Assembly (NCBI GenBank): GCA_020063565.1
Contig: JAICDB010000008.1
Location: forward strand, 39,914 to 103,913
Source: Clostridiales bacterium
GTDB taxonomy: Bacteria; Bacillota; DSM-16504; Desulfitibacterales; JAICDB01
DNA length: 64,000 nt
Reading direction: 5' to 3'
Positions 18,861-48,566 of this stretch are shown in pieces; position 1 is the stretch's first letter, and the number at the start of each line of letters is the position of its first letter. A program made the translations under genes and the position numbers. The notes below the pieces were generated by a model. That model searched no databases and was not told the origin of the DNA. It worked only from the letters and a program-made list of their open reading frames with translations.

Positions 18861-18890
18861 TTGCATAAGAGGTGAACTATGTGTTAAAAT
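18861..18890 (+). promoter_or_regulatory. candidate sigmaA promoter for tRNA-Sec
   Basis: TTGCAT, an 18-nt spacer, then TAAAAT with an upstream TG (extended -10), about 20 nt before the tRNA 5' end. Confidence 0.4.
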
Positions 18891-18912
18891 GATATTTGCT
18901 TGCACTGGGTGT

Positions 18913-27101: not shown

Positions 27102-28136
27102 TTGAAAAGATCTCTTTTACTTATTGGATTACTGGCTTTTATTTTTGTTGCAGTCGCATGCGGAACAGTAAATGAGAAAACTAGTGGTAATAATTCTGGC
27201 CCGGTTACGGAAGACTCCTCCGAGCAGGCAGATAAAAAGGAGGATTTAGGTAATAAAGATTATAATGATGAAGAAAATGTCCCGGAAAAAACTGAACCAC
27301 TGGATGTAGAGCAGAATGTCACGGGCCTGATCCCTAATGAAAATGGTCAGATTATGATTTTAATGTATCACCGCATAGGTGATCGGGAAAGTACCTGGAC
27401 ACGAACAAGGGAAAATTTTCGAAGAGATCTTCAAACCCTCTATGATAAGGGTTACCGCTTAATTAGCTTAAAGGATTATCTGGATAATAAAATAGACCTT
27501 CCGCTGGGTACTACACCTGTCATACTTACCTTTGATGACGGTACCTCCGGTCAGTTTGATTTTATAGAAGGTGATGAAGACCTGCAAATTGATCCCGGGA
27601 GTGCAGTTGGTATTATGAAGGAATTTTATGAAGAACATCCGGATTTCGGTTTGGAAGCTACCTTTTATGTTAACCAAAGGCCTTTTAATTATAGATACTG
27701 GAAGGAAGCAGTAAAAACAATTGTAGGACTGGGAATGGATATTGGTAACCATTCTCTAACCCATGAAAATTTAAAAAAAATACCAATAGAAAAGTATCCA
27801 GATGAAATAGGAGGACTGGTTGCTCATATTACAGAAGCACTTCCTGACTATATTATAGATACTATTGCACTGCCCAACGGAGGATATCCACAGGATGTGG
27901 ATAAAGCCCTTGAAGGAGAATTTCAAGGTGTTAAATATAAAAATAGAGCGCTCTTACTTGTAGGAGCCAGACCTGCGCCGGCTCCCACAGACCCTGCTTT
28001 TAATCCTTTAAAACTTCCCAGGGTCCGAGCAGATGAGGAAAACCTGTACCGCTGGTTGGATTATTTTGATAAGCATCCGGAGAAGAGATACGTGAGTAAT
28101 GGGATTATGGAGGGTAAAAAATATAATCTAAAATAA
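27102..28136 (+). CDS. polysaccharide deacetylase lipoprotein (NodB homology domain)
   Basis: Lipobox LLAFIFVAVAC, LTFDDGTSGQ and HSLTHENL. Confidence 0.8.
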   Translation: MKRSLLLIGLLAFIFVAVACGTVNEKTSGNNSGPVTEDSSEQADKKEDLGNKDYNDEENVPEKTEPLDVEQNVTGLIPNENGQIMILMYHRIGDRESTWTRTRENFRRDLQTLYDKGYRLISLKDYLDNKIDLPLGTTPVILTFDDGTSGQFDFIEGDEDLQIDPGSAVGIMKEFYEEHPDFGLEATFYVNQRPFNYRYWKEAVKTIVGLGMDIGNHSLTHENLKKIPIEKYPDEIGGLVAHITEALPDYIIDTIALPNGGYPQDVDKALEGEFQGVKYKNRALLLVGARPAPAPTDPAFNPLKLPRVRADEENLYRWLDYFDKHPEKRYVSNGIMEGKKYNLK

Positions 28137-28146
28137 ACTTTTTACA

Positions 28147-28170
28147 AAAGCCCAGAAAAATGGGCTTTTT
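28147..28170. terminator. bidirectional terminator
   Basis: AAAGCCCA-gaaaaa-TGGGCTTT followed by a T-run, between convergent genes. Confidence 0.65.
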
Positions 28171-28185
28171 GTCGTGGCAATTATT

Positions 28186-29922
28186 CTATTTACAGGTATT
28201 TGAGCTGCAAGCAACTGTCGGTATTAAAATATCAGCCTTTTGTAGGACGGATATAACTGCAGTAAGGTTTATTTCGCATTTTAATTTATTGGTACCACTG
28301 GTTTTAAAGATACCCAATGTATTACCATCAGGACTACCAATATAGACACTTTTTGAAAGACCTAAATTTTCGCCGCCGGTAACTGACCAGCCAAACTGTG
28401 CCCAGGTTTTTTCTCCCGCCAGAACGCCCCAAATATTGCCGCTTTTGCTGGAAACAATATAGACCTTACCGGCAAAGCGTTCATTATTAGGAGAAGCGCT
28501 AGGGGCACCCAGCGCCAGGTCAGGCAGGCCATCGTTATCAAAATCACCTGCAGAGGATACAGATACCCCTACTTCTTCTCCGCTAACCGGACCTGCAAAA
28601 TGGAGTAGCTGGCTGCCATCCTTTCCCGAAAAAATATAGGCGGAACCTGCTTCCTTCCTTCCTCCGGGAGAACTGTTCGGAGCGCCAACCACTATTTCGG
28701 GAATTCCGTCGCCGTTAATATCATCTAGAGAATCTATTGAAAAACCGAGTCCCGCATTTTTCTCCGTACCTTGTATTGAGTAAATTAAATTTCCGCTCGC
28801 CCCGGAATAAACATAGACAATACCAGCCTGGTATATTCCTGAAGGTGACGCAAAGGGGGCTCCCACTACAAAGTCAGGAATACCGTCCCCGTCTATGTCT
28901 GCAATCTTTTTTACGGAGTAGCCGAAGGAATCATCTGGGTTTTGACCATCCAAACGGTAAAGAAGGCTGCCGGAGGTCCCGGAATAAACAAAAACGCTTC
29001 CGGCAGTAACTTTGCCCCCCGGAGAAGCTAAAGGGGCGCCTACGAGGATATCCGGAACCCCATCGCCATCCAGGTCCCCGGCCCAGCTTACCGACCAGCC
29101 AAACTGAGCTTCCGGTTCAGTGTTTTTAATTTCAAGGAGAGTTGTACCATCAAGACCTGATAAAACACGGATATAACCTGCCCGAAGCGCTGTACCAATC
29201 TTTGCACTTGGGGCGCCTGCCAGAATATCATTTAAACCGTCTCCATTTAAATCACAACCGGTAGCAAGGGAAAATCCCAAGTCATCTTCCGGAGCGGAAC
29301 CGTAGGCTTCAAAAAGTTTGTTTAAATTGGGATAAGAAAAGGCTGCCACTCGACCTGCATCTTCAATACTTCCAAAAGCTGCAGATGGAGAACCTACATC
29401 AATAGAAGCCGGATTGTTGTCAGTGGCAACAGCAAACCCAAACTGGTCGCCGGGTTGTTTTCCTTTAATTTGTATAAAATTTTCTCCGGGGGTAATGGTG
29501 CAATAGCAATAATCAGTGCATGTCTTAACCTGCAAGTCAAAGGAGCCTTCACCAGGTAAAGTAAGGTAGCAAAATAAAGAAAAGATGAGCTCTTTAGTAA
29601 AGGATTTGTCCCCCGTTGGGCAATGGATTGTAAATGCAAATGATTTGGCAATTTTTAAATATACACTATAAGCGCCGGGTTGCCAGGTCGGTTTGATATC
29701 TTGATAAATAATTTTTTCCGTACCGGGAAGGGGATTACAGTCTACAGTGCTGCAATCCAGGGAATTATAAAAAGGGAGTTCAAAAATGAACTCCTTTCTA
29801 ACTTTCTTATAACGGCTATCAATTACCCGATTTATGGAAATACATGTGATTTCATAGTCATTTGTAAAATTGCCAGAATAATTATTTGTATTTGTCTTTG
29901 CAATTGTTTGCATAGCGAGCAA
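28186..29922 (-). CDS. FG-GAP/integrin-alpha-like 7-blade propeller protein with Cys-rich N-terminal module, no signal peptide
   Basis: There are seven repeats of the type FGxSVxxxGDxxGDGxxDxxVGAP (for example FGWSVSWAGDLDGDGVPDILVGAP). The N-terminal ~170 aa are Cys-rich and there is a Cys-containing C-terminal tail. The start is 29922 (TTG) or 29913 (ATG). Confidence 0.85.
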   Translation of the reverse strand: MLAMQTIAKTNTNNYSGNFTNDYEITCISINRVIDSRYKKVRKEFIFELPFYNSLDCSTVDCNPLPGTEKIIYQDIKPTWQPGAYSVYLKIAKSFAFTIHCPTGDKSFTKELIFSLFCYLTLPGEGSFDLQVKTCTDYCYCTITPGENFIQIKGKQPGDQFGFAVATDNNPASIDVGSPSAAFGSIEDAGRVAAFSYPNLNKLFEAYGSAPEDDLGFSLATGCDLNGDGLNDILAGAPSAKIGTALRAGYIRVLSGLDGTTLLEIKNTEPEAQFGWSVSWAGDLDGDGVPDILVGAPLASPGGKVTAGSVFVYSGTSGSLLYRLDGQNPDDSFGYSVKKIADIDGDGIPDFVVGAPFASPSGIYQAGIVYVYSGASGNLIYSIQGTEKNAGLGFSIDSLDDINGDGIPEIVVGAPNSSPGGRKEAGSAYIFSGKDGSQLLHFAGPVSGEEVGVSVSSAGDFDNDGLPDLALGAPSASPNNERFAGKVYIVSSKSGNIWGVLAGEKTWAQFGWSVTGGENLGLSKSVYIGSPDGNTLGIFKTSGTNKLKCEINLTAVISVLQKADILIPTVACSSNTCK

Positions 29923-29965
29923 CCCCGTTAAAATTTGATGTGATTTACTAAATATTACCCTATAA

Positions 29966-29992
29966 TAAAATATGTCGGAGCAGGTAAAATGT
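29966..29992 (-). promoter_or_regulatory. sigmaK-type promoter candidate (AC-N16-CATATTTTA)
   Basis: The reverse complement reads aagaACattttacctgctccgaCATATTTTA. The -10 element lies about 43 nt upstream of the FG-GAP start. Confidence 0.45.
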
Positions 29993-29994
29993 TC

Positions 29995-31554
29995 TTACTT
30001 AACCCATGGTACCAGGTTCGGCCTGGGGTCAAGAATTGATTGATACTGCTCTTTTATACCATAAATACTGTTCGGATCAAGTTTCTTGTAGCGGTAATAC
30101 TTTTTTAAACGGTCTGCAGGTTTCATCCAGCCAAGGTGCTTAATTCTTAAGTCGCTGTTTACGCCTTTTAGTTCAGTTATATTTTTGGGAAAACGCCCGC
30201 AGTGCTGGGGAGTTTCCCTCCAGAGATAGTTAAAATCGGGAACGTACCTGACCATGAAGGGACGGTACCACTTATGGGCATTCCAGTATGCATCCTCACG
30301 GTAATAATTTTCATCCCACATATCGTATAAACGGAAGGAATAATAGTAGATGTCAGGACGTTCTGCCAGTGATTTTAAAAGGTGCCGCGCCCTGTCTTCG
30401 AAAATTTCATCAGCATCTAAAATCAAGATCCAGTCAGGTTGAGTTTCTACTGTCATTTCCCAGAGCTGCTTTCTGAGTACTATTTCGTTGTTAAAGGACG
30501 GCTCTTTATTGGAGATTAGGGTCAGGGGAATACCTTTCAAAAGTTCCTTGCAAACTTCCACAGTATTATCCTCGCTGGCATCGTCCAGAATAACGGCATG
30601 ATCTATATATTGCAGAGCATGTTTGAGAACCATTTCCAGATACCTGTCAGCTTCATTTCTTACCAGCATGGATAGGGTAATTCTACTTCCTTTTTCCCTC
30701 TTTCCGTGCCCTGCAGGCTGATTTTCAATATTTCGACTATTCTTGTTAGCGGTCTCAACTGAAAAAATTTTTTCCTTGTATGCTTTAAGTTCTGACAGTT
30801 CAGACTCCCGGTAGATGTGAAATGGGGGATAATGGGTATCTGCAAAAAGCTCCAGTCCCAGTGCAGCGGCCCGAACGCAAAAGTGGCGGTCTTCACCTGC
30901 AAGGCTCAGATTATATATTTCACTAAAGGACACCCCCATGGAAAGCGCCTTTCTGCTTATCAAGGTACAGGCTCCCAAACCGCCTACCTTGTAGGTACCA
31001 GGTTTAGATAACATTTCCAAAAACTTATCTGCTCTCTTACGCTGTTCTTCTTGGTTTAAGGTTTCACCCCTCTTTGCATGATACAATTTGTAATCGTCGG
31101 AAATCCATACCTGCGGAAGCGGGAGCATACCCGGTATCCACCTGGTCCAGTAGACCTCCGAGACAATATCCTTACCAAGGGAGACTAGATGGGTAATTGT
31201 TTTGGGATGCAGGTACAGATCGGAATCTACCAGAAAAAGATAGTCATAACCTTCTTCAAGCGCCAGGGTGATAAAGCTGTTTTTAAATTCAGCTACCTTC
31301 CAAATTAGATCCTCGCGCCAGTAATGGGTGGACTCGTCACAAATATAACAGTCCTCTGATTTTGTCGGAAAAATATGGACATTTTCTTTACCCCGGGAAA
31401 AATTGGTGAGTAAATCATGGTCGTTATTATCGTCAATAAAAGCGAAATCCAGCACTAAATTAGTGGATTCCAACCTCTCAAGGGACTCCAAAAACTCCGC
31501 CAGAATTACTTCTTTCTGCCTGACGGGACTTGCTATAAGAACCCGTTTTTTCAT
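29995..31554 (-). CDS. two-domain glycosyltransferase (N-terminal GT-A-like + C-terminal GT2)
   Basis: 519 aa. The C-terminal half has ITLSMLVRNEADRYL...AVILDDASEDNT...ILILDADE. The N-terminal half has VLIASPVRQKE...FIDDNND...LFLVDSD. Confidence 0.8.
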   Translation of the reverse strand: MKKRVLIASPVRQKEVILAEFLESLERLESTNLVLDFAFIDDNNDHDLLTNFSRGKENVHIFPTKSEDCYICDESTHYWREDLIWKVAEFKNSFITLALEEGYDYLFLVDSDLYLHPKTITHLVSLGKDIVSEVYWTRWIPGMLPLPQVWISDDYKLYHAKRGETLNQEEQRKRADKFLEMLSKPGTYKVGGLGACTLISRKALSMGVSFSEIYNLSLAGEDRHFCVRAAALGLELFADTHYPPFHIYRESELSELKAYKEKIFSVETANKNSRNIENQPAGHGKREKGSRITLSMLVRNEADRYLEMVLKHALQYIDHAVILDDASEDNTVEVCKELLKGIPLTLISNKEPSFNNEIVLRKQLWEMTVETQPDWILILDADEIFEDRARHLLKSLAERPDIYYYSFRLYDMWDENYYREDAYWNAHKWYRPFMVRYVPDFNYLWRETPQHCGRFPKNITELKGVNSDLRIKHLGWMKPADRLKKYYRYKKLDPNSIYGIKEQYQSILDPRPNLVPWVK

Positions 31555-31602
31555 TACTATACTCCTCTCAACCAGGTTACCATAAAACTGCCCGTCGAAA
31601 AT

Positions 31603-33117
31603 TCACATAAGAAACGTCCCTGATGTGAATGCAAAAGGGCCGGGGGAGTACGATGGACAAAATTCTTTTATTAATAAAAGCAATGAATTTTCAACCAGGA
31701 TTTTTAAACGCTTTTTGACAGGAAAGAAACAAGAATCATACCCTTTTTCCATAAGCGCAGCAAATTTGTAAATCTCCTGTGCAGTTACAGAAAGGTATTC
31801 AAAAGATAAATATTTTTCCGATGAAAATTTTAGCAGGGAAATTGTCTCAGAATAGCTTGCACTTAACTGAAGCAAATTCTCACCCTGCTTATTGTCGGAA
31901 ATTACATCGTAGATGGACAGCAGCAGGATTATAAGAGCTAATGATATTTCGCCGGTGTTTACAAGTTCCCCTGAGATTTCTTTTTTTTTCTGTAGCGAAG
32001 TGAACCGGCTAAGTTTTTCAATTGATACAGAAAACTTGTCTCTTTGAATGAGGCCGATCAACTGCGTGAGAGGATATAGAAACCTGCTTGATTTCTTAAG
32101 GGCTCTTAAATAGGAGTTTTTAGCTTCAGTATAATTAGCGGATAAATTATATGCATCCCCTAGCAAGGAAAGTATTTTAAAATCCGGTAGGGCCTTGTTA
32201 CCTTCTTTTTCAAATGCACCATTTAAGTCTATAACTGCTTCCAAGTATTTTTTTGTGTTAAAGTTTCCTATGCCCTTTAATAAAAGCAGGTTAGGATTTT
32301 CAGGCAACATTTCCAGAGATTTGCTTGTGAAATCAATTAACCTTTCAATTCTGCCTAATTTCAATAAGCCCACTGCAATATTAAGAACAACATCCTCAAA
32401 ATAACCTTCAGTTCCATGCATACCACGAAGAGCCTTTTCTAGAGATTGAAGCCCTTCGGAAATCTTACCCTCCTGGTAATGCTCCACGGCAAGGCAATAT
32501 AAAAGGAAAGGGTTATTAGGATTGTTTTGTAATTCCTGATAAATAATTGTTTTATTGCGATTGAATTTATCCTTTTTCACAACCTGCGATTTCAAATAGC
32601 CATAATGCTCGATTACCAGGGGAGCTGTTTTCAAGCCACTTCCACCGTTCTCATTTAAAATTGCCGGCGCCACCTGCTCATGAATGGCTCCAGTAAATCT
32701 ATAGACCGGTTTGTTTCTAAAGAGTCTGACAACCCGGTCCCAGGTCACTTTTTGCCCTGTGCCCACATAGTTTTTAATATGCAGGTAATAACCTTCAACA
32801 TTGGTATCGGAGAGCAATTGCTTAAATTCTTCACTACCAACCGGAGCCAGAGTTTCGTCGGCATCAAGCACCATTATCCAGTCACAGTCAGCCTGTTCCA
32901 GGGCAAAATTTCTGGCCTCAGAAAAATCCCCCCTCCAGGTGAAATGAAACACCTTGGCTCCTGCTGCACCGGCAATGCTGGCTGTCTGATCGTGAGACCC
33001 CGTATCTACTACGATTATTTCATCTACAAGGTGCTTGACGCTGTTTATGCAGGATAAAATAAACTCTTCTTCATTTTTTACTATCAGGCACAGGCTTATA
33101 GTTTCCTTTTTAGCCAT
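31603..33117 (-). CDS. GT2 glycosyltransferase fused to TPR repeats
   Basis: ORF 31603..33129, with the likely ATG at 33117. It has ISLCLIVKNEEE...IIVVDTGSHDQT...IMVLDADE and a helical-repeat C-terminal half. It overlaps the upstream stop by 8 nt. Confidence 0.85.
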   Translation of the reverse strand: MAKKETISLCLIVKNEEEFILSCINSVKHLVDEIIVVDTGSHDQTASIAGAAGAKVFHFTWRGDFSEARNFALEQADCDWIMVLDADETLAPVGSEEFKQLLSDTNVEGYYLHIKNYVGTGQKVTWDRVVRLFRNKPVYRFTGAIHEQVAPAILNENGGSGLKTAPLVIEHYGYLKSQVVKKDKFNRNKTIIYQELQNNPNNPFLLYCLAVEHYQEGKISEGLQSLEKALRGMHGTEGYFEDVVLNIAVGLLKLGRIERLIDFTSKSLEMLPENPNLLLLKGIGNFNTKKYLEAVIDLNGAFEKEGNKALPDFKILSLLGDAYNLSANYTEAKNSYLRALKKSSRFLYPLTQLIGLIQRDKFSVSIEKLSRFTSLQKKKEISGELVNTGEISLALIILLLSIYDVISDNKQGENLLQLSASYSETISLLKFSSEKYLSFEYLSVTAQEIYKFAALMEKGYDSCFFPVKKRLKILVENSLLLLIKEFCPSYSPGPFAFTSGTFLM

Positions 33118-34867
33118 GAGTATTACCACCGATTTTGAATTTATAATTGAGAGAGCTCCTAACCCTACCCGCTTTATCCCGGTAAAATTCCAATAAGGTA
33201 AGATAACCCTGAGGTGACGTACTCTTAATAATAGATTTCAAATTAGCAGCTAATTGCAGAAGACGGGGATTTTGCCTTCCGTATTCGGGCAGATAGTAAT
33301 TGCATAAATTGAATATTTCCAAGGCAGGTGTTAGTAGTTCTTTTTCCCGTATTTTTTGGGGACAGTTTATGATCCCGTCCTTTTCCATCATGCGGGTTAA
33401 GTTTACCAATATCCACCCTTCGCACCTTGTCTCCTGGTTTCTCCATAATTTAAGCGCTAAAGATCTTCCTTCTGCAAAACGTTCCAGCAATAGGAGGGCA
33501 ATTGTTTGCAGAATTTGGGATTGGATATAAAACTTGCTTTCCACTGAAACCTGTTTCAGATGTTTTAAGCCCTGCTCTAACTTACCTGAAAAAATATTGT
33601 ATTGTCCCAAACAAAACCGCATTTCATCACAATTTTTTTTATCTGCTACTTCTTCCAGGGATAGACGGGCGAGACCCGGAAACCCGGAAGCAAAAAATAA
33701 ATTTGCAACCGGCAAAGCTAATTGGCTACTGCCCAGGTAGCCTTTCTCTTTTAAATATTTCAGCGTATGGCGGGCACCGCTTTTTGCCTTAAGTAGCAAA
33801 AAGAGATTGTAAATAGGAAAAGTATACTTGGGGTTAGCAGCCAGGGCTTGTTCATAATAATTTTGTGCTGCATTTGTTTGACCAAGCATTTCGTGACAGT
33901 ATCCCAGGTGGTAAAAGGCCAGAAAGCTTTCAGTTCCGTTCATGTGGCTGTAGAAAGGTGGTGGTGTTCCACACTTCACTGCCTGGTTAAACCACTTTAT
34001 GGCCAACTGTAACTCTTTCTTTTCCTCGAAAAGAATTCCACACAGGTAATAGATATCAGTATAGTCAGGATACTTCAGTTCTGCTTCCAGGCAGAGGCAA
34101 ATTGCTTCATCAAGTCTTCCTAAGGATTGCAGGCTAATAATCAAGTAACGTAAAGCCGGCGCCCGGAAGAAAAGGTTACTGTCGGTAATATTCCGATAGG
34201 CCTTCTCCAAGTACGGAAGCGCCTTACCGGGCTTTCCCAACATCAACCACTCGACCCCAAGGTAATATTCAAGAAAGTGGTTCTGGGGTTCCCTAGAGTA
34301 TGCTTTTTTCAGTAGAGATAGATTGCGCCCTCTTTTACGGTTGCGTTCCCCGGAAGGGAGCATTTTATGTTTTATAACAGGTCCAGCTGCCATCCTTAGC
34401 GCTTCTTTTTTAGTAATAACAATCTGTTCGTGAATTTTACCCTCAAATCTGTATTGCCCGTTATTTTTAAAGAGCCGAAGTACAAGAAAGCGGTTGTATT
34501 CACCGTTACCGTCAGCAGTAGGGTTATCAAGCGGTAGAAGATAGGCTTCCGTGCTTTTATCACGGGTTATAAGACCCTTTAAATCGCCGGTTTCGGCAGC
34601 TAATTCTTCATCAGCATCGAGGGACAAAATCCATTCACTACTTGCTTTCTCAATTGCAAAATTGCGAGCTGCACTGAAATCATCGTCCCAGGGGTACCGG
34701 TAAATCTTATTTGTAAACTTCCGGGCTATTTCCAGGGTACTATCTGTGGAACCGGTATCCACGATAACGATTTCGTCCACCTGGTGGCTTACACTGTCAA
34801 GGCAGGCCTGTAAATTTTCCTCTTCATTTTTTACGATCATTGCCAGAGTAATGGTACCTTCTTTCAT
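33110..34867 (-). CDS. GT2 glycosyltransferase fused to TPR repeats
   Basis: It has ITLAMIVKNEEENL...IVIVDTGSTDST...ILSLDADE followed by TPR-like repeats (YYLCGILFEEKKELQLAIKWFNQAV, YHLGYCHEMLGQTNAAQNYYEQALAANP). An ATGA overlap joins it to the upstream gene. Confidence 0.85.
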   Translation of the reverse strand: MKEGTITLAMIVKNEEENLQACLDSVSHQVDEIVIVDTGSTDSTLEIARKFTNKIYRYPWDDDFSAARNFAIEKASSEWILSLDADEELAAETGDLKGLITRDKSTEAYLLPLDNPTADGNGEYNRFLVLRLFKNNGQYRFEGKIHEQIVITKKEALRMAAGPVIKHKMLPSGERNRKRGRNLSLLKKAYSREPQNHFLEYYLGVEWLMLGKPGKALPYLEKAYRNITDSNLFFRAPALRYLIISLQSLGRLDEAICLCLEAELKYPDYTDIYYLCGILFEEKKELQLAIKWFNQAVKCGTPPPFYSHMNGTESFLAFYHLGYCHEMLGQTNAAQNYYEQALAANPKYTFPIYNLFLLLKAKSGARHTLKYLKEKGYLGSSQLALPVANLFFASGFPGLARLSLEEVADKKNCDEMRFCLGQYNIFSGKLEQGLKHLKQVSVESKFYIQSQILQTIALLLLERFAEGRSLALKLWRNQETRCEGWILVNLTRMMEKDGIINCPQKIREKELLTPALEIFNLCNYYLPEYGRQNPRLLQLAANLKSIIKSTSPQGYLTLLEFYRDKAGRVRSSLNYKFKIGGNTHG

Positions 34868-36834
34868 GTTACCGGTTCCTCCTCCGATAACTTCATGAAA
34901 ACCTTCATATCGGGGTATTTTTGCATGGCTTCCTGTAAAATTTTTTTGCGCTTGTTATCGTATAAGTTGATTAGCCTGATATAATAACGTGGTACATTGC
35001 TATTTATTTCCAATGCCCGCCGGTAATTTTGTTCTGCTTGATAATAATTATCTGTTTCTTGATAAATTTCAGCCAGGAGATAATATGTTTCAGCATCAGC
35101 GGTAGCAGTTAAATATTCTTTTAACAACTCTTTTGTTTTTTCCTTATAACCGTAGTCATAAAAGAGCTGAGCAATGTTTAGCTTGTGTTCAGTCAAACTT
35201 TCGGGATTGACCATGTTCAAGAGGCGCTCTACCTTATCTGTTTCATCCATATCAAGCAATCTTTTTACTATATCAAGCAGAAGATCCATTCCATCATTCC
35301 CGAGGGTTACGGCTGAAACACCTTTCTTATCCAGCACATCTACAAGAAGCTTTAATACTTTTTCCGTATCCTCCGCCAGGCCAAAGGAACAGAACTCTCC
35401 AAAAAGAGCACGTACTCTCTTCTTATTATCCTGGAGCCAAAAGCAAAACAACTGGTTAAACTTTGCAAGAGGGTAGAGATAGCTCTCAGAAGTGAACTCC
35501 TCAATAATTCTCAGCGCTTCCAGGTATCTTCGTTCTTGAATCAGACAAATGATTTTTCGCAGTTTAATTTCGGGGGAAGCAGTTTTATTTTTTGTGCCTT
35601 TTTCAAGATATTCCAGAGCAAGCTTATAGGCTCCCTGCCGAAAGAAGATATCACCCATAATTAGGTTGGCCCTGGCAGTACAAAATTCAAATACCTTTTC
35701 CAGGCATTCAACTGTATATTCAGGGTTTTCACGGGGATTAAGGATACGTACTATATTTTCCAGGGCAGGTGTAAATTCCGGGTTGTCACGCAAACTTGCC
35801 ATGTAGTACCTAATGGCATCTTCATACTTTAAAAAAGTTTCTGCTATTTGTCCCAGGTAGTAGAACGATCTAAATCCCCTTACACCGGCAAAAGAAGCAT
35901 ACTGGGCGGGTTGTTCCGGCATTGAAACCGCCTTTTGAAAAGAGTCGCTGGCATTGGCGTACTGCCTCAATTCTAAATAAAGCAACCCTGCATAGTAATA
36001 AAGGTCTGCATAATTGGGAAAGTGTTGTAGGCCAAGCTGGACAATAGCGAGCGCCCTATCCGGCTGCCCTGCGGACTGGTGAGACATGACAATATACCTT
36101 AAAAGTTTTGGAAGGTAAATAGTATTGGGGTCTATACCGTTTGCCGCTCGAGTCAATTCCCTGGCTGCCTCTGCATATCTTTCGGCACGGAAAAGCTCAA
36201 CGCCGTAATGATACCTTAATAACTTGTTTTCCGGTTTTTGTGCAAGTTCCCTTTCAATTATTTTCAGGTTTCTTTCTTTTTTATTTTTTTCATTTATTTG
36301 CCTGTCTAGATAACCATAATGGACGACTACTATCTCTTCAGCTATTTTATAAGCGGCAGTGTTGTTCTTTTCCAGAATAACATCAGCTATTTGCTCGTGA
36401 ATAGCCCCGCGAAATCTATAATCACGCCTGTTTCTAAAAAGACGAAAGATTAAATCGGGACAGGTTTCAATCCATCCTTCGTTGCCAATATAGTTGATGA
36501 CCTTGATAAAATAACCTTCTACACTATCGTCAGTCACCAGACTTCGCAGCGCTTCCTTACTTTCTTTTGCCAGTTCTTCGTCGGCATCCAGAAACAAGAT
36601 CCAATCTCCGGTAGCAAGCTCCAAGGAAGCGTTCCGAGCATCACTAAAATTTTCATTCCAGCAAAAAGACTGGATTTTTGCTCCAAATTCACGGGCTATT
36701 TGACAGGTATTGTCAGAAGAACCTGTATCAACAACAATTATTTCATCCACCACATCGGCTACGCTACTCAGACATCTGCGGATGTTTTGCTCTTCATCCT
36801 TGATAATCATACATAAACTGATTGAGGTATCCAT
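34864..36834 (-). CDS. GT2 glycosyltransferase fused to TPR repeats
   Basis: It has ISLCMIIKDEEQNI...IIVVDTGSSDNT...ILFLDADE followed by about 400 aa of TPR-like repeats (YYLLAEIYQETDNYYQAEQNYRRALEINS). Confidence 0.85.
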   Translation of the reverse strand: MDTSISLCMIIKDEEQNIRRCLSSVADVVDEIIVVDTGSSDNTCQIAREFGAKIQSFCWNENFSDARNASLELATGDWILFLDADEELAKESKEALRSLVTDDSVEGYFIKVINYIGNEGWIETCPDLIFRLFRNRRDYRFRGAIHEQIADVILEKNNTAAYKIAEEIVVVHYGYLDRQINEKNKKERNLKIIERELAQKPENKLLRYHYGVELFRAERYAEAARELTRAANGIDPNTIYLPKLLRYIVMSHQSAGQPDRALAIVQLGLQHFPNYADLYYYAGLLYLELRQYANASDSFQKAVSMPEQPAQYASFAGVRGFRSFYYLGQIAETFLKYEDAIRYYMASLRDNPEFTPALENIVRILNPRENPEYTVECLEKVFEFCTARANLIMGDIFFRQGAYKLALEYLEKGTKNKTASPEIKLRKIICLIQERRYLEALRIIEEFTSESYLYPLAKFNQLFCFWLQDNKKRVRALFGEFCSFGLAEDTEKVLKLLVDVLDKKGVSAVTLGNDGMDLLLDIVKRLLDMDETDKVERLLNMVNPESLTEHKLNIAQLFYDYGYKEKTKELLKEYLTATADAETYYLLAEIYQETDNYYQAEQNYRRALEINSNVPRYYIRLINLYDNKRKKILQEAMQKYPDMKVFMKLSEEEPVT

Positions 36835-37001
36835 AAAGATTATGCTGCTCCTTATAACTAGTTAATGTTTCTCCTATAATTCACTATATGTAGAGATTTA
36901 AAAAAATTTAAAGAAAATGTAAAAAAACCAGAACTTTCCACCTGTATGTGAAATACTATATTACTAAATAAAACAAAGTTTAAGTAAAGGGGGGAATCTT
37001 A

Positions 37002-37826
37002 ATGCCAAACTTTAAGATTTTCCAGGATACTCCCGACCAGGCGAAGGTAAAAATCTATGGTAGCAATGATGTTGCATTTAACACTGACTCATCCGGTAAC
37101 CTGACAATTACCTCAACCGGCCTGGCAATTACAGCGCCTGCCAATGGTCTAAGCATCACCAGCACCGGGTTGGCAATAACAGCGCCAGCCAACGGGTTGA
37201 CAGTTACAGCGCCAGCATCCGGCCTATCCATTACTCCACCAAGCGGTGGACTATCTATAACACCGCCAACTAGTGGTCTGACTATTACCAGCACCGGGCT
37301 ATCAGTAACGGCGCCGGCCAACGGATTAACGGTTACAGCGCCGGCATCCGGCCTATCCATTACTCCGCCAAGCGGAGGATTGTCTATTACGCCACCGACT
37401 AACGGTTTAAGCATTACCAGCACAGGCCTTGCAATTACGGCGCCAACAAATGGGCTCACTGTAACTGCATCTTCTGATGGTTTGAAAGTTGCAACGGCCA
37501 CTACTGATGTCTCGGCCACCAGGGCTAACGTTACTGACACTGCAGGTACTCCCGATACAACTTACAACGTACTGGGTTATAAGACCTGGACCTTCGGTGT
37601 TGTAAATGCTTCAACTGCAACAGATGCCCAGGCGCTTGTCAAACTTCAAATCAGCCCTGACGGTACCAACTGGCAGGACGAAGTAAGTTCGGTAACAATT
37701 AACCAGAATTCTTTAGCAACATTTGTGTCTTCGATATTCTTAAAATATGCCAGAATTTACTACAGTGCTGTTAACGCAAGTAGTGCAGTAACTTTGAACA
37801 TCTTCTTCCAGGGGCAATCTGACTAA
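37002..37826 (+). CDS. Thr/Ser-rich repeat protein: short N-terminus, 15 x (7- or 9-residue xxxGLx[IV]) repeats, beta-rich C-terminal domain
   Basis: 274-aa ORF with the strong RBS AAAGGGGGG and no signal peptide. The repeats alternate TSTGL[AS][IV] and T[AP]PxxGL[ST][IV]. The C-terminal ~110 aa are non-repetitive. A terminator lies at 37877-37906. Confidence 0.8.
   Translation: MPNFKIFQDTPDQAKVKIYGSNDVAFNTDSSGNLTITSTGLAITAPANGLSITSTGLAITAPANGLTVTAPASGLSITPPSGGLSITPPTSGLTITSTGLSVTAPANGLTVTAPASGLSITPPSGGLSITPPTNGLSITSTGLAITAPTNGLTVTASSDGLKVATATTDVSATRANVTDTAGTPDTTYNVLGYKTWTFGVVNASTATDAQALVKLQISPDGTNWQDEVSSVTINQNSLATFVSSIFLKYARIYYSAVNASSAVTLNIFFQGQSD
37083..37490 (+). repeat. coding tandem repeat array (21/27-nt units; higher-order 129-nt unit at 37158-37286 and 37287-37415)
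   Basis: The two 129-nt (43-codon) blocks encode TSTGL..TAPANGLTVTAPASGLSITPPSGGLSITPPT.GL.I and differ mostly at synonymous or near-synonymous positions. Confidence 0.9.
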
Positions 37827-37876
37827 AAACTAAAAAAGAGAAACCTTTTAGACTCCCGGCTGTTCTTTTAAAGCTT

Positions 37877-37906
37877 AAATATTCCTCCCGTATGGGAGGA
37901 ATATTT
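37877..37906. terminator. bidirectional terminator
   Basis: 13-bp perfect stem AAATATTCCTCCC / GGGAGGAATATTT with loop GTAT, between convergent genes. Confidence 0.7.
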
Positions 37907-37907
37907 A

Positions 37908-39494
37908 TTATGGACCCAATCTATCTGTCACTTGCTTCACTTCTTCAGCATAATTAATTTCTTTGAGATTTTCTATGGTTTCCTCAAAAATATTTTTATT
38001 ACTAGCGGTTTCTTCAGCTAGATTACTATTTTTATTTACTTCATTCTCGCTGTTTTCCTTAGATTTCCTTTCCTTGGATTCATTCGATGCACTGCCGGTG
38101 GCTTTCACCTCTTCTTTTTGACACTTTTTTTCTAAAGGATTTGTATTTGCCCAAAAAGTGCTCTTTAAAATCATATTTGTATTCCTTTTATCCATAGACA
38201 TGGGTATTTCAGATAAACCATTGGGTCGGAAAATATTTTTTGCAAAGTGATATTGTACTTGTTTATTAGGTGGTAAGGTTTCTAGAGGATTGCCGGAATA
38301 ACTTTGTGTATCGTGTGCAAACTGAAAAACCGGTACGTCTCCCGGAACAGATAGGGGATCATAATTTGACCTGTGCTGGCGAGTGATTTTTTTTGTAGCA
38401 ATATTCTTTGCACGTATGTTTCTTTTTTGCGGCGCTGCTTGTTTTTTGGTTAGCGCTGTATTTTTAATTTGTATTGTAGGATTTTCCCGGTGACCAGTTT
38501 CCGTTTCCTCTTGGGGTAGCCTTATTTCCTGCTCATTTTTTGTTTCAACGCTTTTTTGAAGTTGCTGTTCGCTAGTTTGCCCTTCAAGCATTTTTGGAGC
38601 ATCGTTTGTTACTGTCATGTCATCATCTCTTACCTGTATATTTTCCTCATGCTGTGTTTCCATTTCAGCTACGGTTTGATTTTCCGGTTTTTCCTGTGAA
38701 TCATCTTCTTGAGCAGTTGGTGTTGTTTTGCTGTTAGAGATGAATCTTTTTATTGATTTAAGTTTTTTAAGGGATGCAATTTTTCTATTTTCTTCATTTT
38801 GCCTGTTAACTTCAGCTTTTATTTCTGAATATATTTCTTTTACCAAACTTACTATAATTTTGGTATCTTCTTTAGTTAAAGTCTTCTTATAATGTTCAAC
38901 AATACTGGAGGTTATTATGTTCTGAAATTTATCCCGTAAGTCTTTTAACTGTTCAAAATTGCTCAATTCAATTAACACAGTAGGTGTTGGCGAGTTAAAA
39001 AAGTACTGCCAGTATTTTACGTTAGTTACATAATCCCACCAGGATGCAACAGAATAGTTAATATTAAGGTCAGCCCTTGCAATTTTTTTGATAATTTTTG
39101 AGGCTAAGCTTGTAGCGCTATTGGAACTTTTTGAAGTAAAAAATTTTATGGTATTATAGTCTGTCGTGTAATTATTGTTGGAAAAACAAAGAATTATCTG
39201 TGCGTCAAGAAATTTTATTGCTTGCGAGCTCATATGTTTGTTGCTGACAAGGCATATTGCATCATGCCTTATAAGTTCCTCTTTTATGGAATTTGCCATT
39301 TCAGTAATGATTTCAACATTATCAAGTAGTTGTATTAAAATTGTTTTGCCGGTCAGGGGAGGAACGAGTTGCAAGTCACCGTTTTCCGCAATCTTATAAT
39401 TTATATCCAATAAATCACAGTTTTCTTGAAACTTTTGTAATAAGTCTTCTTCCAATGTAAGAACCGTATTATCGGCAAGTTTCACATTGATCAT
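37908..39494 (-). CDS. hypothetical 528-aa protein: N-terminal degenerate Amidase_3-like domain (tentative) + long E/K/Q/N-rich low-complexity region
   Basis: RBS GGAGGG. The N-terminal ~220 aa align by eye to the MurNAc-LAA fold (AQIILCFSNNN vs ADLFxSIHxNA; PTVLIELSNFEQ vs PAVLVExGFxSN) but lack the Zn ligands. No signal peptide. Confidence 0.7.
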   Translation of the reverse strand: MINVKLADNTVLTLEEDLLQKFQENCDLLDINYKIAENGDLQLVPPLTGKTILIQLLDNVEIITEMANSIKEELIRHDAICLVSNKHMSSQAIKFLDAQIILCFSNNNYTTDYNTIKFFTSKSSNSATSLASKIIKKIARADLNINYSVASWWDYVTNVKYWQYFFNSPTPTVLIELSNFEQLKDLRDKFQNIITSSIVEHYKKTLTKEDTKIIVSLVKEIYSEIKAEVNRQNEENRKIASLKKLKSIKRFISNSKTTPTAQEDDSQEKPENQTVAEMETQHEENIQVRDDDMTVTNDAPKMLEGQTSEQQLQKSVETKNEQEIRLPQEETETGHRENPTIQIKNTALTKKQAAPQKRNIRAKNIATKKITRQHRSNYDPLSVPGDVPVFQFAHDTQSYSGNPLETLPPNKQVQYHFAKNIFRPNGLSEIPMSMDKRNTNMILKSTFWANTNPLEKKCQKEEVKATGSASNESKERKSKENSENEVNKNSNLAEETASNKNIFEETIENLKEINYAEEVKQVTDRLGP

Positions 39495-39524: not shown

Positions 39525-39552
39525 TATAATATGTAGACAGTATTAAAAATGT
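39525..39552 (-). promoter_or_regulatory. sigmaK-type promoter candidate (AC-N17-CATATTATA)
   Basis: The reverse complement reads tataACatttttaatactgtctaCATATTATA. The -10 element lies 30 nt upstream of the ATG at 39494. Confidence 0.5.
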
Positions 39553-39576: not shown

Positions 39577-39615
39577 TAAAAAAACACCGCCAAAAATCTG
39601 ACGGTGTTTTTTTTT
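39577..39615. terminator. bidirectional terminator
   Basis: ACACCG / CGGTGT stem flanked by an A-run and a T9 run, downstream of the CAP-domain gene. Confidence 0.6.
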
Positions 39616-39629: not shown

Positions 39630-40364
39630 TTAGTATTGGAACGTTTGTACTACGATAACATAGCCATTTTGGTCATATGAAATTCCAATTCCTACACGGT
39701 TAAAAACAGATCTTAAAATATTTTCCCTGTGAGGTTCACTTGCCATCAATAGTCGATGAGCTTTATATATATCACTTGTATAGGAGACATTTTCCCCGCC
39801 GGGAGCCATTCCATTATGGTTCATCCTGTTAAAGGGATCTTCGCTTATATAATCACTTCTTTTTTGGGCAAATTTAATTAATTCAGGATCTAAAGTTAAA
39901 GGTTCTATACCGCGGCTTGTCCGCTCCTCATTTATCTTATTAAACAGATACATAACTTCCTGGCTTACATTAACAGTTGTCTCTTGTTCATTGTTTTCCT
40001 GCAGTTGCTGGGGATCAGTGGGAGTTTGGACCGGATCGTTAGGCTGTGCGGGAGTTGTTTGATTATTATCGGATCCTAAAGCAGCTTTTTGAGCTCTTAA
40101 ATATTTAATTTTTTCTGCTATACTCTGAAAATTATTTTGACTATCTTGCTGATTGGTATTAGCAGTGTCAGGTACTGGATTTGAAGGTGGCGGTGTTTGT
40201 GTATTGCTTTCACCGCTTGATGGAACTGAATAAGAGGGCGCTTGATAATTGTTTAAAAGTTTTGCTGCTCCCCAAGATGATTCAGCAGGCGGGACATTAA
40301 ATTGAAATAACAAAAATGCTGATACTCCTGTAACCACAAATGCCTTAACAAGTTTCTCCTTCAT
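39630..40364 (-). CDS. secreted CAP/SCP-domain protein (YkwD-like)
   Basis: It has an N-terminal signal/TM segment, a Q/N/P-rich linker and a C-terminal CAP domain (INEERTSRGIEPL...HRENIL...VGIGISYDQNGYVIVVQTF). Confidence 0.8.
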   Translation of the reverse strand: MKEKLVKAFVVTGVSAFLLFQFNVPPAESSWGAAKLLNNYQAPSYSVPSSGESNTQTPPPSNPVPDTANTNQQDSQNNFQSIAEKIKYLRAQKAALGSDNNQTTPAQPNDPVQTPTDPQQLQENNEQETTVNVSQEVMYLFNKINEERTSRGIEPLTLDPELIKFAQKRSDYISEDPFNRMNHNGMAPGGENVSYTSDIYKAHRLLMASEPHRENILRSVFNRVGIGISYDQNGYVIVVQTFQY

Positions 40365-43443: not shown

Positions 43444-44847
43444 CTAAAAATATCTGAAAAGTTTATCATTCAACTGTATTTTAATATCAGGATATTCAAC
43501 TAACTTATCATAAATAATTTTAACATACTGGCTTAATTTATTGTAAGTAGTAGCTTCGCATCTCAATACTAGTGCAGGTTGAGTGTTTGAAGCCCTGATA
43601 AGTGCCCAGCCGTCATTAAAATTAATTCTAATGCCATCTACATCTATTATTGAATATTTTTCGGAAAAGAAGGATTTGCATTCGCTGACAATTTTAAACT
43701 TAATAGCATCCGGGCAATCAATCCTTATCTCCGGAGTAGAGTAATATTCGGGAAGCTTTTTAAGCTCATCTGCTAAGGTATTTTCAATATTTGACAAAAT
43801 TCTTAACAAACGTGCGGAAGCATATATAGCATCGTCGAAACCGTAGTATTCATCGGCAAAAAACATATGACCTGACATCTCTCCGGCAAATGGGGCTCCT
43901 GTTTCCTTTAAAGCTTTCTTGACATAGGAGTGTCCCGTTCTTAAGAATACCGGTTGTACCCCCAGTTTTTTCAGTTCATCTATTAGACACTGAGAACACT
44001 TGACTTCAACGAATGCTTTATCTATTTGCGGGGTTTTGGAAAGTATCTCCTTCCAAAAAAGTATCATTATTTTATCTCCCCAGATAATTTTGCCCTCATT
44101 GTCAACGACTCCGAGTCTGTCACCATCCCCATCGTAGGCAATACCTACATCTGCTTTTTCCTTAAGAACAGCGGCCTGTAAATCTTCCAGGTTTTCAGGT
44201 AGGACTGGATCAGGAAAATGCCCCGGAAATGTGGGGTTAGATTCTGCATTGATTGGAATTACTTTGCAGCCTAAGGAAGATAAAATTTTAGGAGCATATG
44301 GGGAGGTAGTACCGTTACCGGGATCCACAACAACTTTTAACTTTTTAGGCCCGAGCTTAATCTTTTTTCTTATCATATTGCGATAAGCAGGAAATACATT
44401 TTCTTTTAGGAGGGAACCCGTACCGGTTATGAATGATTGAGTAGCAATTAGATGTTGCAAATTTTTGATGCCAGCGCCATACAAATTTTGGCCATTTACT
44501 GAGATTTTGAAGCCATTGTATTCAGGTGGATTATGGCTGCCTGTCACCATAACAGCTCCTTCAACGTTGTAATAAATTTGTGCAAAATAGAGCATAGGAG
44601 TAACAACCATTCCAATGTCTATGACATTAATTCCTGTCGATATTAAACCTTTAATCAGGAAATCTTTTAAGAAGATTGATGAAAATCTGTTATCATAACC
44701 TACTGCTGCTTTATTTCCGTTATTTTCTTTTAGGACTGTACCAAATGCTTTTCCTATCTGCTCGGCTACTTCCGGTGAAAGGCTTCCGTCAGTTGTTAAT
44801 CCCCTGATGTCATATTCCCTGAAGATATCCGAATTTACTTTTTTCAT
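43444..44847 (-). CDS. phosphomannomutase/phosphoglucomutase
   Basis: ORF 43444..44874, with the likely ATG at 44847. It has the active-site TGSHNPPEYNGFK and the Mg site GIAYDGDGDRLG. Confidence 0.9.
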   Translation of the reverse strand: MKKVNSDIFREYDIRGLTTDGSLSPEVAEQIGKAFGTVLKENNGNKAAVGYDNRFSSIFLKDFLIKGLISTGINVIDIGMVVTPMLYFAQIYYNVEGAVMVTGSHNPPEYNGFKISVNGQNLYGAGIKNLQHLIATQSFITGTGSLLKENVFPAYRNMIRKKIKLGPKKLKVVVDPGNGTTSPYAPKILSSLGCKVIPINAESNPTFPGHFPDPVLPENLEDLQAAVLKEKADVGIAYDGDGDRLGVVDNEGKIIWGDKIMILFWKEILSKTPQIDKAFVEVKCSQCLIDELKKLGVQPVFLRTGHSYVKKALKETGAPFAGEMSGHMFFADEYYGFDDAIYASARLLRILSNIENTLADELKKLPEYYSTPEIRIDCPDAIKFKIVSECKSFFSEKYSIIDVDGIRINFNDGWALIRASNTQPALVLRCEATTYNKLSQYVKIIYDKLVEYPDIKIQLNDKLFRYF

Positions 44848-44893
44848 CAGGTATCCTCTCCTAAAGTGGTACAATGATTTACTTTCTCTATTA

Positions 44894-44921
44894 TAAACTA
44901 TGATGATGAATGGCCATTAGT
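44894..44921 (-). promoter_or_regulatory. sigmaK-type promoter candidate (AC-N17-CATAGTTTA)
   Basis: The reverse complement reads ttgtcACtaatggccattcatcatCATAGTTTA. The -10 element lies 46 nt upstream of the ATG at 44847. Confidence 0.45.
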
Positions 44922-45021
44922 GACAATTTTTCCATAAAAAACCACAAAAAGATTTTTTAACCAAACTACGCAATATGAATAGGATAAATAATAAATCGCT
45001 TAAAAGGGTGAGGGAAATGGT

Positions 45022-46464: not shown

Positions 46465-46465
46465 A

Positions 46466-47431: not shown

Positions 47432-47454
47432 TACTAGCCAAGTTGAGGGATATT

Positions 47455-48564: not shown

Positions 48565-48566
48565 GT

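Follow-up and report, generated by a model that had tools for sequence, protein, structure and literature searches.

Organization of the glycosyltransferase operon

The stretch of DNA analysed here, referred to as the window, comprises 64,000 nucleotides (nt) of contig JAICDB010000008.1 from the Clostridiales bacterium assembly GCA_020063565.1. It contains an operon of four glycosyltransferase genes on the reverse strand, here called A to D, and a divergently oriented gene for a repeat protein with a C-terminal DUF6385 domain. Judged from computational evidence, these genes probably encode a sporulation-specific system for the O-glycosylation of a spore-surface fibre protein in the mother-cell cytoplasm. 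The direct basis of this reading is gene structure, homology, fold, conserved synteny, gene fusions and a conserved promoter element.

The first gene of the operon, A (34864-36834), encodes a protein of 656 amino acids (aa). Pfam and a search against the PDB sequences identify it as a GT2-TPR enzyme, i.e., a family 2 glycosyltransferase (GT2) carrying tetratricopeptide repeats (TPRs). It is followed on the same strand by B (33110-34867; 585 aa) and C (31603-33117; 504 aa), two further GT2-TPR enzymes, B being assigned by Pfam, paralogue alignment and tree, and by D (29995-31554; 519 aa), a tandem GT-A glycosyltransferase recognized by Pfam, profile and fold searches. As read from the sequence, the start codon of B lies over the stop codon of A with an overlap of 4 nt (ATGA), and C overlaps B by 8 nt (ATGGCTAA) if it starts at the ATG at 33117. 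An alternative GTG at 33129 would yield a protein of 508 aa and an overlap of 20 nt. The ATG is preferred because the N-termini of orthologues (MNKPTVSLC..., MKTKETVSLC...) match this start. C and D are separated by a gap of 48 nt that includes a ribosome-binding site (GAGAGGAG).

An earlier note on this DNA had described three paralogous GT2-TPR genes coupled by overlaps of 4 and 8 nt. All four open reading frames (ORFs) are present as described, an N-terminal GT2 domain is found in A, B and C, and both overlaps can be read in the sequence, the 8-nt one given the ATG start of C. The block consisting of the operon, the DUF6385 gene and an adjacent gene for an FG-GAP repeat protein (28000-38000) has a GC content of 0.41-0.43 compared to 0.33-0.38 in its flanks. 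This could reflect a compositional constraint of conserved genes or acquisition.

Relatives of enzymes A, B and C

Pfam detects the N-terminal GT2 domain (PF00535) of A, B and C with scores that exceed the cut-off (E-values of 1.8e-22, 1.2e-21 and 5.4e-21), and TPR families match strongly in A (TPR_14, 6e-16) and B (TPR_1, 1.7e-11). Pairwise identities are 33% over 482 residues for A and B, 34% over 377 for A and C, and 33% over 367 for B and C. Since the alignments are this long, the homology reaches well beyond the catalytic core and into the first TPRs. The suggestion of the earlier note that each enzyme carries a different C-terminal half thus holds for the distal parts, which do differ, but not for the first TPRs. 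The three enzymes have all retained the DxD (LDADE) and HEQ motifs. In A, they are located at residues 83-85 and 146-148, and both motifs, together with further residues, are invariant in 16 A orthologues.

Among all PDB sequences, the closest solved structure to the catalytic domain of A is the glycosyltransferase domain of Listeria GmaR (E-value 1.6e-35, 38% identity over 190 aligned residues), followed by the S-glycosyltransferases SunS (2.5e-24) and ThuS (1.3e-19). Residues 142-401 of A also match the crystal construct of the GmaR TPR/linker region (7x9r, GmaR141-637; 5.9e-12). As both the glycosyltransferase and the TPR/linker parts match, and GmaR is a protein of 637 residues with glycosyltransferase, TPR, linker and helical domains, A can be regarded as a near-full-length GmaR homologue. 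OGT and SPINDLY match A through the TPRs alone. Membership in the eukaryotic-type OGT family (GT41) was rejected because the catalytic domain is of the GT-A/GT2 and not the GT-B type, and the TPRs are C-terminal and not N-terminal. In NCBIfam, A, B and C score highest with the model of the SunS family (TIGR04195), reaching 106, 89 and 79 bits against a curated equivalog cut-off of 350 bits. By these profile scores, the three enzymes are relatives but not members of the SunS family.

In the same PDB sequence search, no enzyme of lipid-linked polysaccharide synthesis was found near A among the solved structures. NCBIfam matches of A-C to such families are weak (E-values of 1e-4 to 1e-10) and far under the cut-offs. 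A role in lipid-linked polysaccharide synthesis was rejected on this weak homology, the lack of transmembrane segments in A, B and D, and an operon that consists of A-D without priming, flippase or polymerase genes. Firm homology to that pathway, which the earlier note had named as speaking against protein glycosylation, was not found; the nearest relatives are GmaR, SunS and ThuS. Residues 392-410 of C form the sole notably hydrophobic stretch of the four enzymes (TGEISLALIILLLSIYDVI; Kyte-Doolittle value of 1.92, moderate). It may correspond to a helix buried in the fold or to a segment that associates with a membrane or the coat.

Tandem GT-A enzyme D

Enzyme D is composed of an N-terminal domain (residues ~1-266), a disordered linker (267-285) and a C-terminal domain (Dc, residues ~290-519). 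Pfam detects a GT2 domain (PF00535) above the cut-off in the C-terminal part (298-430; E-value 4.7e-12) and a weak Anp1-like match in the N-terminal half. As a single sequence, D had no match in the PDB. A profile of 24 orthologues matched human procollagen galactosyltransferase COLGALT1 with its N-terminal half (5e-7), and SunS (1.2e-7) and GmaR (1.8e-4) with its C-terminal half. In the AlphaFold2 (AF2) model, which has a predicted local distance difference test (pLDDT) score of 84.8, two alpha/beta domains are connected by the disordered linker. In a Foldseek search with D, COLGALT1 was the top match (5.8e-19), ahead of K4CP (2e-16), heparosan synthase 2 and LARGE1, which are bifunctional polymerases. 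The profile matches for both halves, the AF2 model and the Foldseek search confirm the two glycosyltransferase domains that the earlier note had read in this protein. With two modelled GT-A folds and a DxD motif in each domain (VDSDL, residues 110-112; LDADE, residues 380-382), D corresponds to the tandem GT-A bifunctional type as predicted from its structure model.

The divergent DUF6385 repeat protein

The divergent neighbour of the operon (37002-37826, forward strand) encodes a protein of 274 aa, in which Pfam detects a C-terminal DUF6385 domain (PF19912, E-value 9.7e-23). It is the Thr/Ser-rich repeat protein pointed out in the earlier note. It contains no Cys and neither a hydrophobic leader nor a signal peptide. 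Because of the lack of Cys, the linkage would have to be an O-linkage if this protein is the acceptor, and an S-linkage of the SunS type is excluded. The repeat region consists of 15 units of 7 or 9 aa, each beginning with Thr, and Ser and Thr account for 34% of its residues. Two repeat types are found, T-x-P-x-x-G-L-x-[I/V] (e.g. TAPANGLSI) and TSTGLAI; an example of the repeat sequence is TAPANGLSITSTGLAI. Orthologues are 160-310 aa long and differ in length through the number of repeats, the T, P, G and L of which are near-invariant. Conservation is high in the N-terminal 36 residues (MPNFKIFQDxPDQARIKIFGS...) and in the C-terminal domain.

The AF2 model of the protein (pLDDT 87) shows an N-terminal hairpin and a beta-sandwich head (residues 167-273) at a pLDDT of 92-98. 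The repeat stretch is placed confidently (pLDDT 82-87) with no helices or strands assigned. According to Foldseek, the head is a jellyroll, with PirA and Ena1B/Ena2A/Ena3A as the best solved matches (E-values of 1-4e-4, template modelling (TM) scores of 0.53-0.65). C1q heads appear lower in the list, and lectins and carbohydrate-binding modules (CBMs) are also among the jellyroll matches. When viral models were searched by fold, collagen-like and tail-fibre proteins matched over the whole chain, which fits a fibre composed of stalk and head. At the sequence level, the best match in the PDB is marginal (AfpX13, E-value 0.0066), all others being worse than 0.1.

The DUF6385 family is small: a single-sequence search yielded 100 representatives at an E-value of ≤1e-3 among 1.84 billion sequences. 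The domain is nearly always located at the C-terminus of proteins of 130-350 aa and is now and then repeated in giant proteins. Giant DUF6385 proteins of 1,100-2,300 aa are found in some Bacilli and in metagenomic sequences (L070 2692-7940; L078 1-6990; P0378, P0390, P0416). Some of them contain multiple copies (up to 5 matched stretches), and their genes adjoin three GT2-TPR genes.

Conserved synteny and paralogue history

A genome scan was performed with one genome per species and an alignment of A orthologues as query, and yielded 80 loci. The ORFs of these loci were classified by phmmer and a DUF6385 hidden Markov model; homologues of the window cluster proteins were sought, and no general annotation was made. 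An A orthologue is present in 53 loci (~50 species), and the denominators given below are those among the 53 with enough flanking sequence. Full-length identities of A orthologues range from 53 to 72% across Desulfotomaculia/Peptococcaceae, Desulfosporosinus, Thermoanaerobacteraceae and Negativicutes. Typically, a strong DUF6385 orthologue is encoded directly upstream of A in divergent orientation (42/46 loci), and a DUF6385 gene of any kind is found within nearly all loci (45/46). Downstream, A is followed by B in 46 of 48 loci, then by C in 43 of 44 and by D in 36 of 42. This gene order recurs in two complete genomes, those of Desulforamulus reducens and Sporomusa carbonis, where precomputed Pfam labels read GT2-TPR/GT2-TPR/GT2 flanked by DUF6385. 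A more distant version in Paenibacillus, Thalassobacillus, Rossellomorea, Effusibacillus and others comprises one or two DUF6385 genes, three GT2-TPR genes and a Dc-like glycosyltransferase. The DUF6385 gene is the conserved genomic partner of the glycosyltransferases across classes of Firmicutes. In many clusters, it is accompanied by flanking paralogues of 150-360 aa. To our knowledge, all lineages that carry the cluster are endospore formers.

In several species, C and D are fused to a single protein of 826-902 aa (826 aa in L001, 873 aa in L040, 844-902 aa among further fused proteins), and in other species D is joined to methyltransferase domains. A neighbour-joining tree of 226 catalytic domains, calculated without support values, places A (56 sequences), B (51) and C (49) each in a monophyletic group of its own, which points to an ancient triplication. 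The retention of all three ancient copies argues for distinct roles. The tree partly resolves the one-to-one orthology of the three genes from Bacilli with A, B and C: gene 3 is sister to C and gene 2 is located near A. A second GT2-TPR group lies within 10 kb of the A-D cluster in several Desulfotomaculia (L001 1-4990; L011 648-5000; L015 2783-7100; L030 3-3830; L038 6795-10880). It consists of 650- and 790-aa proteins, which form clades apart from A, B and C. The 790-aa proteins carry two GT2 domains, and a GT1-TPR gene adjoins the group in L001.

Promoters and terminators

To compare promoters, 51 distinct regions upstream of orthologous DUF6385 genes were aligned on the start codon. In 42 of these regions, the motif AC-N16-17-[CA]ATAnnnT[AGT] is located 62-91 nt before the start codon, compared to a mean of 3.3 (maximum 9) in shuffled sequences and 7 on the opposite strand. 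In the window, the element is located on the forward strand at 36933-36960, 69 nt before the start codon, and has the form AC-N17-AATACTATA (in full ACTTTCCACCTGTATGTGAAATACTATA). The consensus of Bacillus sigma-K promoters is MWCM-16-CATANNNTD (PMC9562818), and the SigK-dependent promoter of bclA reads CAC-N16-CATATGTTA (PMC4750369). The elements found in Negativicutes are canonical, e.g. CATAGTATA.

On the opposite strand, a -10-like box (CATATAGTG) precedes gene A at 36882-36890. Of 39 regions upstream of A orthologues, 29 contain CATAnnnT[AG] within -100 to -20, in most cases at -47 to -37 (mean of 2.5 in shuffles, maximum 8). The conserved GTGGAAAGTTAC was considered as the -35 element of the operon and rejected: only ~10 nt separate it from the -10-like box, and the promoter to which it contributes the -35 region is that of the DUF6385 gene on the opposite strand. 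A and the DUF6385 gene are 167 nt apart, and this intergenic region contains no strong sigma-70-type promoter. Scans of the window were uninformative (38 sigma-70-type promoters with 30 expected, and 14 simple terminators with 12.7 expected). An inverted repeat at 37878-37906 (AATATTCCTCCC-GTAT-GGGAGGAATATT), which was missed by the simple terminator scan and read directly from the sequence, is located between the convergent genes for the DUF6385 protein and a 528-aa protein. It is probably a bidirectional terminator.

Other genes in the window

Downstream of D, the gene for a leaderless FG-GAP repeat protein is encoded on the reverse strand (28186-29922; Pfam FG-GAP, E-value 4.8e-45). The protein has 12 Cys overall, and its Cys-rich N-terminal region of ~170 residues matches no family. 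An exact sigma-K consensus (ACATTTTACCTGCTCCGACATATTTTA) is located at 29966-29992 on the same strand, between the D stop codon and the FG-GAP start. On the other side, the 528-aa protein (37908-39494, reverse strand) is of low complexity, rich in Lys, Glu, Asn, Ser and Thr, and without a Pfam or NCBIfam match. Its gene has an exact sigma-K consensus 31 nt upstream. A strong terminator with a 16-bp stem (39578-39613, reverse strand) follows the gene for a YkwD-type CAP-domain protein (39630-40364) and directly precedes this sigma-K box, splitting two transcription units. The FG-GAP and 528-aa proteins were rejected as conserved co-substrates: FG-GAP orthologues lie beside the cluster or a DUF6385 gene in 3 of the fetched loci only (L006-L008), and the single homologue of the 528-aa protein, a weak one, is linked in one locus (L007). 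A role of the FG-GAP and Cys-rich proteins as co-substrates, considered in the earlier note, finds no support.

The strict motif AC-N16-17-CATAnnnTA occurs 11 times in the window, with 6 occurrences at promoter position: 29966-29992, 39525-39552, 44894-44921, 52247-52273 and 56817-56843 on the reverse strand and 11005-11031 on the forward strand. The genes behind these boxes encode the FG-GAP protein, the 528-aa protein, a phosphomannomutase, two GT4 enzymes and a phosphosulfolactate synthase (comA/yitD-like). The six boxes suggest a larger late-sporulation gene neighbourhood. Sporulation-associated families in the window are YyaC/DUF1256 and YkwD-type CAP.

A sugar-nucleotide and glycosyltransferase cluster (43444-56702) encodes phosphomannomutase, mannose-1-phosphate guanylyltransferase/isomerase, GDP-mannose 4,6-dehydratase, UDP-glucose/GDP-mannose dehydrogenase, six GT4 enzymes and one GT2 enzyme. 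It could supply donors for a spore glycan. A conserved linkage of the GT2-TPR operon to the GDP-mannose pathway was rejected, as homologues of phosphomannomutase and ManC occur in no other locus and a GMD-like gene in 6. Further away, the window contains an origin-proximal set (135-6852: mnmE, mnmG/gidA, rsmG/gidB, parA/soj, parB/spo0J), followed by genes for DUF4446, an M23 peptidase and a YyaC-like DUF1256 protein (13158-13772). The selenocysteine machinery is located at 15463-19006 and comprises selA (15463-16860), selB (16861-18810) and tRNA-Sec (18913-19006; Rfam, 70.7 bits). Of 59 window ORFs searched against Pfam, which comprise nearly every ORF of ≥150 aa, those below ~150 aa being unscanned, none matches a flagellar or bacteriocin-maturation family, in agreement with the earlier note as regards flagellar genes.

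Comparison with known systems

In Clostridioides difficile, SgtA, a GT-A enzyme with 4 TPRs that is encoded beside bclA3, transfers GlcNAc to Thr of the BclA3 repeats in vitro (PMC7157674). Compared by its described architecture, SgtA resembles A-C as a soluble GT-A enzyme with C-terminal TPRs whose gene lies beside that of a leaderless, repeat-rich protein. The acceptor of SgtA is Thr in short repeats, and the DUF6385 repeats each start with Thr, for which an acceptor role is proposed. Expression is mother-cell specific in C. difficile; here, the sigma-K-like element may point to such expression. BclA3 and the DUF6385 protein also share their layout of N-terminal domain, variable repeat stalk and C-terminal beta head. 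In contrast, SgtA is a single enzyme of 358 aa with 4 TPRs, whereas the operon encodes three paralogues of 500-656 aa and a tandem GT-A enzyme with five catalytic domains in total. BclA3 has collagen GXT triplets and a BclA-C/C1q head, whereas the DUF6385 protein has 7- and 9-mers (T-x-P-x-x-G-L-x-I/V) and a PF19912 head.

GmaR of Listeria monocytogenes (PDB 22ao, 7x9r) is the best solved relative of A, with 637 compared to 656 aa and the same order of GT-A, TPR and helical-repeat parts. It O-GlcNAcylates flagellin and acts as MogR anti-repressor (PMC9638930). GmaR glycosylates a leaderless protein in the cytoplasm, and the candidate acceptor DUF6385 is likewise leaderless. It differs in its flagellar context, as opposed to the DUF6385 partner here, and in being one enzyme instead of three paralogues; there is no sign of an anti-repressor role or MogR in the present system. 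SunS and ThuS (TIGR04195; PDB 7msn, 7msk) share the GT-A domain with a helical substrate-binding domain and, besides being the top NCBIfam family of A-C, are matched by the C-terminal half of D. The differences are the scores of A-C far under the cut-off and a candidate acceptor free of Cys, which calls for O-linked chemistry. Among the homologues of window cluster proteins sought in the loci, no glycocin- or bacteriocin-like genes turned up; no general annotation of the loci underlies this statement.

BclA, the nap glycoprotein of the Bacillus cereus group (PMC4750369, PMC12357932), has a SigK-type promoter, to which the tentative sigma-K-like element of the DUF6385 gene may correspond, and an N-terminal targeting region, a role that the conserved N-terminus of the DUF6385 protein may also have. 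Both proteins have no leader, a Thr-rich stalk of variable copy number and a jellyroll head, which is predicted in the DUF6385 protein. BclA is heavily O-glycosylated, which for the DUF6385 protein is a proposal. The two differ in repeat chemistry and head family, and the glycosyltransferases of BclA are not the GT2-TPR trio of this operon. D resembles COLGALT1 (GLT25D1), K4CP, PmHS2 and LARGE1 in its two tandem GT-A domains per chain, and COLGALT1 acts on a repeat protein, collagen. The likeness is at the level of fold and weak profiles (13-16% identity), and the acceptor chemistry on hydroxylysine is unrelated.

The subunits of endospore appendages (ENAs), namely S-/L-ENA (DUF3992; PDB 7a02, 9i0y, 8pdz) and F-ENA (DUF4183; PMC12357932), are spore-surface fibre proteins with a small jellyroll head, as is proposed for the DUF6385 protein. 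They belong to other Pfam families, the DUF6385 protein has no Cys for disulfides of the Ena type, and the fold matches are weak (E-values of ~2-4e-4). F-ENA subunits consist of an N-terminal hook (MPVIKPV) and a head-neck, and dock with the hook onto the next head domain (PMC12357932). DUF6385 proteins have a conserved MPNFKIF start, a stalk and a head. Their N-terminus MPNFKIF(Q/I)D (37002-37025) looks like the F-ENA hook motif M-P-psi-psi-$-P-psi, a visual likeness only.

Proposed mechanism

The earlier note had proposed protein O-glycosyltransferases acting on the Thr/Ser-rich neighbour, and all computational tests that were run moved in that direction. It had missed the sporulation context. 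Several features together point to a mother-cell O-glycosylation system: soluble, cytoplasmic enzymes, a leaderless, Cys-free candidate acceptor with Thr repeats, a back-to-back promoter region with a sigma-K-like element, presumed occurrence in endospore formers, and the precedent of SgtA. The timing of expression, the identity of the acceptor, the O-linkage, the division of labour among the enzymes, the spore-surface location and the sigma assignment are the parts that we infer, and they would fit together as follows.

Late in sporulation, back-to-back divergent promoters would drive the DUF6385 gene, from its sigma-K-like element, and the coupled A-B-C-D operon. The DUF6385 protein would consist of an N-terminal module that may serve as anchor or docking piece, an extended stalk formed by the variable repeats, and the jellyroll head. 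The soluble GmaR/SunS/SgtA-like enzymes A, B and C would hold the DUF6385 protein or its paralogues by the TPR superhelix and, with nucleotide sugars as donors, glycosylate Thr/Ser hydroxyls, adding the protein-linked sugar or sugars. As ancient and separately conserved paralogues, they most likely have non-redundant roles and may act at different acceptor positions, on different DUF6385 paralogues or on successive sugars. The COLGALT1/K4CP-like enzyme D would then lengthen the glycan. The C-D fusions fit such a sequential action, and the D-methyltransferase fusions suggest methylated sugars in some species. Finally, the glycoprotein would be deposited on the outermost spore layer, in the manner of C. 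difficile BclA3 or of the nap formed by BclA in Bacillus.

A number of observations weigh against this reading. The TPR signal of C is borderline (TPR_2, 3e-6), and the SunS-family scores of all three enzymes fall far below the family cut-off. The jellyroll matches of the DUF6385 head are weak and the fold is generic, and the invariant Thr of the repeats could have a structural role instead of accepting sugars. Literature searches for DUF6385 and for the locus tags of orthologues found no paper. The exact Bacillus sigma-K consensus is present in 4 of the 51 upstream regions, most of the others failing at the first -10 base (AATA for CATA); with A permitted at this position, the number rises to 32, compared to 1.6 in shuffles. 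As exact matches are this few, the sigma-K assignment is tentative and the element is termed sigma-K-like. A -35 element for the glycosyltransferase operon was sought in the regions upstream of A orthologues and not found. In addition, the relatives of D with two GT-A domains include polysaccharide polymerases, and this would be equally compatible with a free polysaccharide.

Alternative explanations

A free polysaccharide is the most plausible of the alternatives, although we consider it unlikely. The enzymes would produce a spore-surface or coat polysaccharide that is not covalently bound to the DUF6385 protein, comparable to what has been proposed for the sps/cge crust glycans of B. subtilis; the TPRs would dock the enzymes on the coat, and the DUF6385 protein would be a structural or lectin-like partner. 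After COLGALT1, the fold search with D leads to bifunctional polysaccharide polymerases (K4CP, heparosan synthase 2, LARGE1), and five GT-A domains exceed the need of a simple monosaccharide modification. The lectins and CBMs among the jellyroll matches fit a lectin-like partner, as does one Sporomusa DUF6385 paralogue with a CBM96, and the GDP-mannose pathway and GT4 cluster with its sigma-K consensus boxes lies 6-20 kb away. However, its sugar-nucleotide genes are not conserved neighbours of the operon, and the operon itself is devoid of the genes for priming, export and polymerization noted above. The closest relatives of the catalytic domains of A, B, C and Dc attach sugars directly to polypeptides, and the Thr in each repeat, with variable copy number, mirrors the glycosylated stalks of BclA and BclA3.

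It is more improbable still that the enzymes are protein glycosyltransferases that chiefly modify something else, for instance other coat proteins, weaker-scoring paralogues of DUF6385 or the FG-GAP protein, and that the 274-aa protein is no more than co-regulated. Three separately conserved TPR enzymes do suggest several acceptors, additional DUF6385 paralogues flank many clusters, and the FG-GAP and 528-aa genes of the window have exact sigma-K consensus boxes. Against this, their linkage is confined to the few loci mentioned above. The only neighbour that does not vary is the DUF6385 orthologue with strong scores, and it has a back-to-back promoter region in common with A.

GmaR-type flagellin glycosyltransferases or SunS-type glycocin S-glycosyltransferases, although the best sequence relatives, were rejected as highly improbable on context, NCBIfam cut-off and lack of Cys: the window ORFs searched hold no flagellar or bacteriocin-maturation match, the conserved neighbour in the 80 loci is DUF6385 (flagellar and glycocin genes were not specifically sought there), the scores of 79-106 bits compare with a SunS cut-off of 350 bits, and a neighbour without Cys makes S-linkage impossible.

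Implications for spore-surface biology

O-glycosylation of the DUF6385 protein in the mother cell, as proposed here, is in part of an already known kind, namely a TPR-bearing GT-A enzyme that glycosylates an adjacent leaderless repeat protein, as in SgtA/BclA3 and GmaR/flagellin. New are the three anciently diverged TPR paralogues with a tandem GT-A enzyme, DUF6385 as a candidate acceptor family, a repeat that is not collagen-like, and a distribution that includes Negativicutes. A more far-reaching possibility, which we put forward tentatively and with considerable doubt, is that DUF6385 proteins are the subunits of an undescribed, heavily O-glycosylated fibre or nap on the endospore surface. 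This would be a non-collagen analogue of BclA, possibly a self-polymerizing appendage of hook, stalk and head similar to F-ENA. Such a structure would occur widely among anaerobic spore formers, the diderm Negativicutes included, as well as in some Bacilli, and be made by anciently triplicated GmaR-like glycosyltransferases with a tandem GT-A extender. If true, this would give a function to an uncharacterized domain family and define the main spore-surface glycoprotein of lineages whose outermost spore layer is essentially unstudied.

Spore-surface glycoproteins govern adhesion, hydrophobicity, germinant access and immune recognition, and are understood in few Bacillus and Clostridioides species. 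The locus offers a testable pairing of enzymes and substrate for DUF6385 in Desulfotomaculia, Desulfitobacteriia, Negativicutes and some Bacilli, and these groups matter for subsurface sulfate reduction, bioremediation and anaerobic digestion. It can also be seen as a natural experiment in the diversification of TPR-guided GT-A enzymes, in which three paralogues have remained neighbours from before the divergence of these classes and the third has been recurrently fused to D. If confirmed, the paradigm of cytoplasmic O-glycosylation known from SgtA/BclA3 and GmaR/flagellin would gain a new acceptor family and a multi-enzyme pathway.

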